A DNA stretch of 64,000 nt from Octopus vulgaris. Its lineage: Eukaryota. The position numbers and the translations under genes were made by a program. The stretch is from NCBI GenBank assembly GCA_951406725.2, contig OX597826.1, forward strand, positions 58,032,001 through 58,096,000. The letters run 5' to 3'. Numbering within the stretch: position 1 is the stretch's first letter; every line of letters begins with the position of its first letter. The notes under the pieces are model-generated. The model did no database searches, was not told the origin of the DNA, and saw nothing but the letters and a program-made list of their open reading frames with translations. Positions 5,641 to 54,427 of this stretch are shown piece by piece.

Positions 5641-5691
<51 letters not shown>

Positions 5692-5745
5692 AGAAATTAA
5701 AAAAGGAAAATACGCACACTTACATGGTTTTAATATAATTTTTAA

Positions 5746-5782
5746 TATATCGACCGGTTTCGCTATCGCTATTCATGATATA
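5746..5782 (-). ncRNA. Minimal type I hammerhead ribozyme motif with A3-U8 core covariation (Penelope-like pLTR relic)
   Basis: Minus strand: TATATC-ATGAATA-GC-GATA-GC-GAAAC-CG-GTC-GATATA. It has a 6-bp stem I, a 2-bp stem II, palindromic stem III ACCGGT and a GUC cleavage triplet. Confidence 0.7.
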
Positions 5783-6417
5783 ATGTTTAATTTATATGAA
5801 TATATATTTTTTTCTTAAGAAGGAATTTGGTCCATGTTGTTTGTGATGAAATTCACGAGTGAATATATATAATTCAAAATGTAAACCTTGAAATATATTT
5901 CATGCATTTCAAAATAAAACAAAGCTAACAGTAAGATGGTAAGTGGCGTATATTTTTGTATACCTCCTGTTTATATTTGAAAAGTTTACTCTAACCTTTA
6001 TTTAATAGCGAAGCCAATGGTCACATGCTCAAAATTAATCTTACGTAACGCATCTTCTACATTTAGTAGAGATAAGGTATTTTGAATATCATTTTAGCAA
6101 GTTTAAAGTGAAATTCTTTTGCGCTGTAAACCTTTTACTATTTTTCTTGTGCTCTCACTTCTCTTAATGCTCTAAGCACGTGCTTATTTTGCATAATGGT
6201 TAATCCAGCGCTGGGCGTAAGGTATAACTATATTATCTAACAGAAAAACAGAAGTACTACTTCGAAGCTTTACCAACAAAAATCCTCATGTATTTCTGTC
6301 TGATATGAGAATTATGTGGCCAACCTAGTTTCATATTACATGAAAGAGCAAGGGAGTAACAGCTTAATGGTTAGAGCATCTCTTCCAGTTTTGATTTTAG
6401 TTTGATATAGTATCAAA

Positions 6418-6833: not shown

Positions 6834-7293
6834 ATCCCTTTATTTTGACATTATCTCAACAAGGTGTGGTCTTGTGGTTAGGGTGTTCGAATCACGATCA
6901 TATAATTCCTGGACAGGGTGGTCTACTGTGTCCTTGAGCGAGACACTTCACTTCGCGTTGCTCCAACCTATTCAGTTGTAAATATCATGTGAGGCTCACA
7001 ATGTAATACCGACCCCGCATTTAGGACTTCATATACAGGGGTCTGAGGTCACATCCAAACAAACAAACAAACAAACAAAAATGCGGTAAAAACAAACAAA
7101 AACAACGCACCCGACTTAGTGACATGAAGTCAATGACCAACACATTCAAACCATTTAAGGGTAACTTGAGGGCCGTGAGATTTTCTGGATGGAACGCTTA
7201 ACGGAAATTTACATTGAAATCTTTTAGTAGTGCTGTCGCATGATGATAAGGTGTCTTATGCGGCCCGATTTTCGAAAAAGGGTTGCACATACC

Positions 7294-7710
7294 TATTTCT
7301 TTACTACCCACAAGGGGCTAAACACAGAGAGGACAAACAAGGACGGACAAGCGGATTAAGTCGATTATATCGACCCCAGTGCGTAACTGGTACTTATTTA
7401 ATCGACCCCGAAAGGATGAAAGGCAAAGTCGACCTCGGCGGAATTCGAACTCAGAACGTAGCGGCAGATGAAATACCTATTTCTTTATTACCCACAAGGG
7501 GCTAAACACAGAGGGGACAAACAAGGACGGACAAGCGGATTAAGTCGATTATATCGACCCCAGTGCGTAACTGGTACTTATTTAATCGACCCCGAAAGGA
7601 TGAAAGGCAAAGTCGACCTCGGCGGAATTCGAACTCAGAACGTAGCGGCAGATGAAATACCGCTAAGCATTTCGCCCGGCGCGCTAACGTTTCTGCCAGC
7701 TCACCGCCTT
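7294..7710 (-). mobile_element. SINE family B tandem dimer with one TSD
   Basis: Two near-identical units of about 185 bp, junction at about 7476. TSD GTTGCACATACC at 7282-7293 and 7711-7722. Confidence 0.9.
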
Positions 7711-19446: not shown

Positions 19447-19490
19447 TCTCTGATGAGGATACAAATAACCTCCGAAACGGATCTGTAAGA
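19447..19490 (+). ncRNA. Minimal type I hammerhead ribozyme motif with canonical core (Penelope-like pLTR relic)
   Basis: TCT-CTGATGA-GGA-tacaaataacc-TCC-GAAAC-GGATCT-GTA-AGA. Stem III ACGGATCTGT is near-palindromic. Confidence 0.75.
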
Positions 19491-30959: not shown

Positions 30960-32025
30960 CTAAGTTACGGGGACGTAAACGCACCAGCATTTTTTTCTCT
31001 GTAGCATATAGACAGCTGCAGACATGTTTAAGCCTAATTAGATCTCATCAGCGTATCATAATCTTCTAACGCCGATAGAGTTTCATAGAGATTGAGATGA
31101 CGATGTTCTTATCATTTAATTCCAAGTCATCTCTGACCGAAGGGACTCACGAGCAAAGACGTTCAAATCATGACCTTCTAGCCCTTTTCCAGGTATTATA
31201 TAGTACGAACTATATAATCTAGTGAATACTTTATTTAAAACAATAGGATGTGATTTGAGGGAGATTTGCCTTTTGTTTGAGCAAATCAAGAGATCAAGTA
31301 TGCAAACTCCTTTCTTGGCTTTTGAGATGATAGCAGTGAGGATGATTACTCTTTACCATTTACATCCTATTTGTTTCAGTAGTTAGTCTGCGGTCATGCT
31401 GGGGTACCGCGTTGAAGAATTCTATGTCGGACGAATCGATCCTAGAACTACTGTTTCTTTTTTTTTTAAGCCTGGTACTTATACTATCGGACCCTTTTTG
31501 TCGAAGCGCTATGTCACGGGGACGTAAACCAAGCAACATCGGTTGTCAAACGGTGATCTCACACACACACACGCACACACAAACACACGCACAAACACAC
31601 GCGCACGCACGCACACAGTAGCGGCGGTGGCAGTCGTAACGAAATTAGTGCTAGTGGTGTTGATGGTAGTGGTGGTGGTTGTGGTGGTGGTGGTGGCGGT
31701 GGCGGTAGGAGTAGAGAGGTAATAGTAGTGGATTGTAGCGTTAGTCGTAGTTGCAGTGGTAGTGGTAGTCATAGGGGTAGTACTGGTGGTAGTACTACAA
31801 GCAGTATTGGTAATTGTAGAAGTGGTTGTGGTGTGGTGTTTATATAATAGTATGCAGGAATATGGTGAAGACAAATGGTCCTGTCAACATCACACCTCAC
31901 TGCTAGTTATTGTGAATAATAGTGAGAGGACATTGACGACAGACGTTTATAGTATAATGATGACGACAATGGCGGCAGCAGCGATGGTGGTGGTGGTGGT
32001 AGTGGTGTCATGATGAGGTTGATTA

Positions 32026-32798
32026 CCTATTTCTTTACTACCCACAAGGGGCTAAACATAGAGGGGACAAACATGGACAGACATAGGTATTAAGTCGATT
32101 ACATCGGACCCCAGTGCGTAACTGGTACTTAATTTATCGACCCCGAAAGGATGAAAGGCAAAGTCGACCTCGGCGGAATTTGAACTCACAACGTAACGGC
32201 AGCCGAAATACCTATTTCTTTACTACCCACAAGGGGCTAAACACAGAAGGGACAAACAAGGATAGACAAACGGATTAATTCGATTACATCGACCCCAGTA
32301 ACTGGTACTTATTTAATCGACCCCGAAAGGATGAAAGGCAAAGTCGACCTCGGTGGAATTTGAACTCACAACGTAACGGCAGCCGAAATACCTATTTCTT
32401 TACTACCCACAAGGGGCTAAACACAGAGGGGACAAACAAGGACAGACAAACGGATTAATTCGATTACATCGACCCCAGTAACTGGTACTTATTTAATCGA
32501 CCCCGAAAGGATGAAAGGCAAAGTCGACCTCGGTGGAATTTGAACTCACAACGTAACGGCAGCCGAAATACCTATTTCTTTACTACCCACAAGGGGCTAA
32601 ACACAGAGGGGACAAACAAGGACAGACAAACGGATTAATTCGATTACATCGACCCCAGTAACTGGTACTTATTTAATCGACCCCGAAAGGATGAAAGGCA
32701 AAGTCGACCTCGGCGGAATTTGAACTCGCAACGTAACGGCAGCCGAAATACCGCTAAGCATTTCGGCCCGACGTGCTAACGATTCTGCCAACCTCCAC
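32026..32798 (-). mobile_element. SINE family B head-to-tail tetramer (180-bp period)
   Basis: Junctions CCGAAATAC|CTATTTC at about 32211, 32391 and 32571, with a single tRNA-like head at the right end. Confidence 0.92.
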
Positions 32799-53869: not shown

Positions 53870-54427
53870 CAAGGCCCGAAATTTTGGGGGAGGGGGCCAG
53901 TCGATTAGATCGACCCCAGTGCGTAATTGGTACTTAATTTATCGACCCCGAAAGGATGAAAGGCAAAGTCGACCTCGGCGGAATTTGAACTCAGAATGTA
54001 AAGGCAGACGAAATACCTATTTCTTTACTACCCACAAGGGGCTAAACACAGAGGGGACAAACAAAGACAGACAAACGGATTAAGTCGATTACATCGACCC
54101 CAGTGCATAACTGGTACTTAATTTATCGACCCCGAAAGGATGAAAGGCAAAGTTGACCTCGGCGGAATTTGAACTCAGAATGTAAAGGCAGACGAAATAC
54201 CTATTTCTTTACTACCCACAAGGGGCTAAGCACAGAGGGGACAAACAAAGACAGACAAACGGATTAAGTCGATTACATCGACCCAGTGCGTAACTGGTAC
54301 TTAATTTATCGACCCCGAAAGGATGAAAGGCAAAGTCGACCTCGGCGGAATTTTAACTCACTACGTAACGACAGACGAAATACGGCTACGCATTTCGCCC
54401 GGCGTGCTAATGTTTCTGCCAGCTCGC
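53870..54427 (-). mobile_element. SINE family B trimer (B1-B1-B2 tails)
   Basis: Junctions at about 54016 and 54200; flanked by TACTATCTTTATAA. Confidence 0.9.

Follow-up and report, generated by a model that had tools for sequence, protein, structure and literature searches.

The 64,000-nt stretch of Octopus vulgaris DNA analysed here (the window) carries on its minus strand, from 5782 to 5746, a 37-mer that is a hammerhead ribozyme core variant outside the C3-G8 consensus. We consider it quite probable that this 37-mer is the pLTR hammerhead of a Penelope-like retrotransposon (PLE) family in which an A3-U8 pair is fixed, and that the parent element likely underwent slow self-cleavage as a dimer, probably with the help of its own protein. 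The A-U core appears to be new, and the ribozyme class, the element type and the biological role belong to a known class. Comparison of the genomic copies gives good evidence that selection probably acted on the 3-8 pair.

A hammerhead with an A3-U8 pair

A scan of the letters for the type I hammerhead shape, made on both strands of the 64 kb, gave the motif at 5746-5782 as its sole match. Stem I is formed by a 5' arm (5777-5782) that makes 6 bp with a 3' arm (5746-5751). The core A3-U4-G5-A6-A7-U8-A9 (5770-5776) reads AUGAAUA, with A3 at 5776 and U8 at 5771. The scan and the copy alignment place stem II at 5762-5769, with 2 bp including G10.1-C11.1 and a 4-nt loop, and the segment G12-A13-A14-A15.1 (GAAA) at 5758-5761. 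The ACCGGU palindrome (5753-5758) is predicted from the homodimer minimum free energy (MFE) structure to form helix III between the two molecules of a double hammerhead, and hammerhead numbering puts the predicted cut between C17 (5752) and G1.1 (5751). The hammerhead positions U4, G5, A6, A9, G12, A13, A14, A15.1-U16.1 and H17 are all present, whereas the C3-G8 identity of the usual CUGANGA descriptors is missing and the Watson-Crick 3-8 pair is A-U. The first-pass annotation had proposed an A3-U8 core at this place, and we confirm it on the minus strand, together with the 6-bp stem I, the 2-bp stem II and C17 at 5752. Rfam did not find a hammerhead at the gathering threshold in the whole window or at E<=10 in 5650-5900.

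On the other hand, the intact stem III of that annotation did not hold. Helix III cannot close in the monomer because it would need a 2-nt loop, which is forbidden in ViennaRNA. Of the three-helix junction, closed by stem I, stems I and II are formed in cis and helix III only in the predicted dimer. Two copies of the window motif gave the double hammerhead as homodimer MFE structure, at -15.9 kcal/mol versus -3.9 kcal/mol per monomer, and a single copy was predicted to misfold in its 91- and 171-nt contexts. When one natural example per family was folded as a dimer, 5/5 predictions contained the palindrome helix and both stems I, with stem II mispredicted or extended in 2/5. The window motif has just 2 bp in stem II, and no loop-loop contact was seen. 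The dimer requirement and the retrotransposon context were both missed in the annotation.

Elsewhere in the window, C3-G8 hammerhead-like cores followed by GAAAC stand without stem I at 19450 (+) and 54754 (+) and are possibly decayed motifs. Tandem arrays with a 180-184-nt unit of a SINE-like repeat occupy 7289-7661, 32024-32752 and 53899-54383.

The host Penelope-like element

The motif lies in a 5'-truncated pLTR fragment of a Neptune/Nematis-type Penelope-like retrotransposon (5692-5864, about 175 bp, minus strand), recognized by its similarity to a longer copy. Over 179 nt, the fragment has 96% identity to a copy with its pLTR behind a reverse transcriptase (RT)/GIY-YIG frame, and a search for RT gave no match anywhere else in the 64-kb window. 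At its 3' junction the element meets a (TA)n/(TACA)n tract (5641-5691), which is the likely insertion target; 13 of 30 loci picked by the element tail end at about one shared point, mostly into (TA)n. The window copy is a lone, truncated, dead fragment and probably inert.

Family copies have common flanks, and the longer ones have an RT-CxxC-GIY-YIG frame that ends about 285 nt upstream of the motif on the same strand. In 27 of 30 loci picked by the endonuclease, the motif is located about 270-400 nt downstream of, and sense to, this RT-endonuclease (EN) frame. The GIY-YIG endonuclease matched PF01541 at 31.6 bits (cut-off 22.6). A 635-aa open frame of one copy contains RT together with a GIY-YIG domain at the C terminus, its YLDD RT motif being recognised by visual inspection, and a Cx2-5CxxC linker before GIY-YIG is visible in the copy translations. 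By these sequence features, the motif-bearing family is an EN+ Penelope-like element with a Neptune/Nematis linker. The CxxC linker type agrees with the Neptune/Nematis clades of EN+ elements as described in the accessible text of PMC8557442, and the assignment is made by the linker, our tree being composed without named reference PLE proteins.

No intact member of the family was seen among 150 scored copies, the longest open frame being 635 aa, whereas a sister family reaches 781 aa. The 20 long loci were all 5'-truncated; three carried an inverted pLTR and not one a direct 5' pLTR. We also considered a non-LTR retrozyme and rejected it, since the family copies are dispersed and tied to the RT-EN frame and are not short non-coding tandem repeats with canonical hammerheads. 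At one locus (L024), a copy of the A3-U8 family and a copy of a U3-A8 family lie less than 3 kb apart; PLEs may insert side by side.

A3-U8 as a family state

The 37-mer had 991 matches in the genome (2.8 Gb) at up to three mismatches and 0 in a reversed control, and thus the motif is not due to chance. A family search that left positions 3 and 8 free gave 327 matches; the first 100 listed contained 96 A-U pairs, four single mismatches and no C-G pair. The conservation of A3 and U8 that the annotation wished to see checked is therefore present, and far from lacking a consistent core, the family copies agree in A3-U8. Similarly, when 30 loci were chosen by the endonuclease and 28 of them could be aligned to the window copy, A3 was found in 27/28 (one gap) and U8 in 27/27. 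Loci picked by the tail (n = 30) gave 24 A-U, one G-U and five that the script left unread.

In the 28 aligned copies, deviations were fewer in the core (9/436 cells) than elsewhere (283/4202; Fisher p = 2.7e-5, for copies that are not independent), and none of the 15 subfamily-diagnostic columns fell in the core. The stem II loop differs among subfamilies, and the stem I pair 5781/5747 shows a double change from A-U to G-C in 3 of 26 copies and one-sided changes in four. Contigs from four runs under three organism labels had no variant of >=10% at position 3 or 8, and such variants inside the motif were confined to the stem II loop and outer stem I. These data indicate that A3-U8 is an inherited state of the family, fixed across about 1,000 copies and its subfamilies, and not a decay of the window copy. 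The compensatory double change of the annotation stands in so far as paired 3-8 swaps do occur across families, but the window copy inherited the pair from its family and did not make it.

A3 might also have been fixed for coding. A3-U4-G5 is an AUG that opens an 18-codon frame, and in the PAc element (Anolis Poseidon) the ORF start falls inside the hammerhead, according to the accessible part of PMC11167929. A3 fixed as part of a start codon seems to us hardly credible all the same, as sister families have U3 or G3. Moreover, U8 would occupy the third position of codon 2, in which a C is synonymous, and thus coding does not explain the 3-8 covariation.

Other 3-8 pairs in sister families

A pattern that excluded C3 and G8 and allowed the nine remaining combinations gave 4,235 matches (control 82), and the first 100 listed comprised 30 A-U and 70 U-A and were free of mismatches. 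With a comparable C3-G8 pattern there were 139 matches (control 22), mostly in tandem arrays of about 360 nt. From these two counts, most of the motifs would escape the standard descriptors and Rfam. A looser A3-U8 pattern gave 1,856 matches (control 332), and a G3-C8 pattern, which requires C ahead of GAAAC together with a loop of 2 nt, gave 262 (control 216) with genuine G-C families among them; the gap range differs between the patterns, and the counts of different 3-8 pairs are only roughly comparable. A recurring G3-C8-like match (L147, L151, L159) has no stem I and was treated as a different repeat.

By their flanks, the related PLE families comprise another A-U family, two with U-A and one with G-C. 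They share about 55-65% protein identity with differing stems I and II, which carry compensatory changes between families, and the remaining core positions are identical. One family within the G-C group, defined by common flanks, is mixed. It had 105 matches, and the first 100 listed were 83 A-U, nine G-C, four A-C, two G-U, one U-C and one A-G (Fisher p = 5e-8), the G-C copies probably going back to one event. G-C and A-U would be two transitions apart, with G-U wobble as a possible intermediate. All four Watson-Crick 3-8 pairs (A-U, U-A, G-C and C-G) are thus present in one genome. The family-level states are all Watson-Crick, with C-G in the tandem arrays, and mismatches are scattered single copies.

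Several other loci were observed in these searches. L063-L090, L109 and L110 are retrozyme-like, with tandem arrays of about 360 nt and C3-G8 or U3-A8 cores, L110 being a lone U3-A8 copy of similar build to the arrays. A young sister PLE family (L117, L122, L192 and others) has many 781-aa frames, and in its U3-A8 hammerhead stem II is longer; in L192 an additional 333-aa frame overlaps the start of the long frame. A U3-A8 subfamily (L091, L095, L097, L099, L100) has an extra unpaired U between stem I and position 3, unlike L092-L094 of the U3-A8 family, in which pairing is full.

Outside this animal group, in collections without animal genomes, A3-U8 patterns had three matches in metagenomes, all lacking stem I and any PLE match. 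Viral contigs gave 50, of which 0/50 combined stem I of >=3 bp with stem II of >=2 bp. Both sets were taken as chance matches.

Phylogeny and position 17

For the tree, 84 rows with motif and protein were reduced by eight duplicate or nested rows and by rows with fewer than 105 aligned C-terminal residues, and seven motif-less rows were added, giving 75; the two big families were then cut to six rows each. The resulting 45-row tree (LG+G4, quick search, rows anchored on one query) includes the seven more distant endonucleases, behind none of which a hammerhead was found, and two of these served as outgroup. Ten A-U rows formed one clade (SH-aLRT 99), and two short A-U rows, just 26-27% filled, were nested in the G-C clade (98-100). 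A single clade of all 12 A-U rows was rejected (p-AU 0.031) in a test made after seeing the tree. Since A-U stands in two places of the tree, it had at least two origins or one regain, the tree fixing neither the root nor the order of states.

The same material bears on the view that the motif is a relic, in which A3 and U8 drifted to fixation in a few masters and hitchhiked with amplification. Each family goes back to few masters, so that copy counts are not independent events, and the 3-8 state needs only four changes on the tree. Nevertheless, drift would hardly leave every family-level state Watson-Crick, with mismatches only in scattered single copies, or hold the rest of the core unchanged between families so far apart in protein. 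We regard drift as already disfavoured and very improbable.

With regard to position 17, we examined 196 motifs selected by pattern. G3-C8 went with A17 in 52/55 motifs and with C17 in one, A3-U8 with C17 in 67/79, and U3-A8 with A17 in 9/32. A 3-17 mispair is discussed as inhibiting cleavage in the accessible text of PMC3884650. The A17 of the G3-C8 motifs fits avoidance of such a mispair, although these motifs are a single clade and the cases of U3 with A17 run counter.

Possible traces of cleavage in genomic copies

An excess of copy ends at the predicted cut was not found: of 17 copies without C17, 16 have point changes and one begins at G1.1. Most tail-picked copies pass through an intact motif.

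That one copy is an insertion (L309:1325-1560), which consists of two inverted copies of the pLTR part 3' of the predicted cut. G1.1 is the exact first base of both arms, and between them lies a foreign GC-rich spacer of about 45 nt, which had no match among the other fetched loci and only generic hairpin matches in Rfam. This insertion, a single event, may be the trace of a cleavage product.

Known hammerheads and a possible mechanism

Minimal type I hammerheads in the pLTRs of metazoan Penelope-like elements were described by Cervera and de la Pena (2014; PMC4209133), and we compare them here as far as the text accessible to us goes. They share with our motif the type I topology, the pLTR position, G10.1-C11.1 and a palindromic helix III that implies a dimer; the elements also resemble ours in being mostly single truncated copies with inverted pairs close together. 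In contrast, their 56 representative motifs (Fig. S3) are 53 C-G, two U-A and one U-G, with no A-U or G-C, and helix II has 7-8 bp in the Schistosoma mansoni motifs, against 2 bp here. The extra base after A9, present in most S. mansoni motifs, is absent here. Natural U3-A8 core variants (Perreault et al., 2011, PMC3088659; S. mansoni Cercyon, PMC4209133) are likewise compensatory 3-8 changes, as far as these texts were available, but the purine at position 3 (A-U, G-C) puts our pairs two transversions away from C-G or U-A. A natural A3-U8 pair was not encountered in the accessible portions of the literature searched, including PMC7229834, PMC6155905, PMC10085705 and a 2026 preprint, and older studies may contain it.

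The accessible text of PMC11167929 reports that the PAc hammerhead, also located in a pLTR, depends on its protein for cleavage and shows partial rescue by a 3-8 swap. This partial tolerance is shared with our family; PAc differs in having C3-G8 and belonging to the Poseidon clade, and protein help is our assumption for the A3-U8 family.

In the reading we prefer, a tandem or read-through transcript would bring two repeats together, which would pair via the ACCGGU palindrome of each, exchange the arms of stem I and cleave after C17. For minimal PLE hammerheads, action as dimers and low rates in vitro have been reported (PMC4209133; PMC6765202). The cutting would be slow and probably aided by the element's own protein, and it might free or circularise the element RNA. 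In hammerhead catalysis, the 2'-OH of nucleotide 8 acts as the general acid. If catalysis depends on a Watson-Crick pair at 3-8 for the placement of the nucleotide 8 ribose, the bases may change as long as the pair holds.

The fold including the 3-8 pair might instead have been retained because it binds the PLE protein or acts as a folding element for it, for instance close to the point where reverse transcription begins, with A3-U8 hardly cutting. Several reports, as far as accessible, would agree with this: when all double mutants of another hammerhead were scanned, G3-C8 alone restored activity and the other doubles in the region were low (PMC9901934), ribozyme mutants of PAc were unimpaired in insertion in vitro (PMC11167929), and minimal PLE hammerheads had low activity in vitro (PMC4209133). 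The copies, too, come mostly from RNA uncut at the 3' motif. A role in binding alone fits poorly with the fixation of every catalytic-core position and of the NUH site, and with the near-exclusive A17 of the G3 motifs, subject to the reservations given above. On balance we think it unlikely, and slow cleavage of a dimer remains our preferred reading. The annotation had argued for selection for activity in the parent element: selection on the 3-8 pair there appears well supported by the comparisons, whereas cleavage as the selected property is a prediction.

Implications

Nucleotide 8, which is catalytic, is held in position by the 3-8 pair. C-G and U-A are known in nature, and this genome adds family-wide A-U and G-C. 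The mixed family, with G-C and A-U copies in near-identical flanks, offers a natural pair for separating base identity from pairing alone, and the same pair could show whether the element protein rescues weak cores.

Finally, we suggest tentatively, and with somewhat less than even confidence, that A3-U8 is a working protein-assisted core that would have arisen at least twice in one Penelope radiation sampling U-A, G-C and A-U, with co-adaptation at position 17. CUGANGA descriptors would then fail to see the majority of hammerheads in this genome, and censuses of animal ribozymes may fall substantially short.
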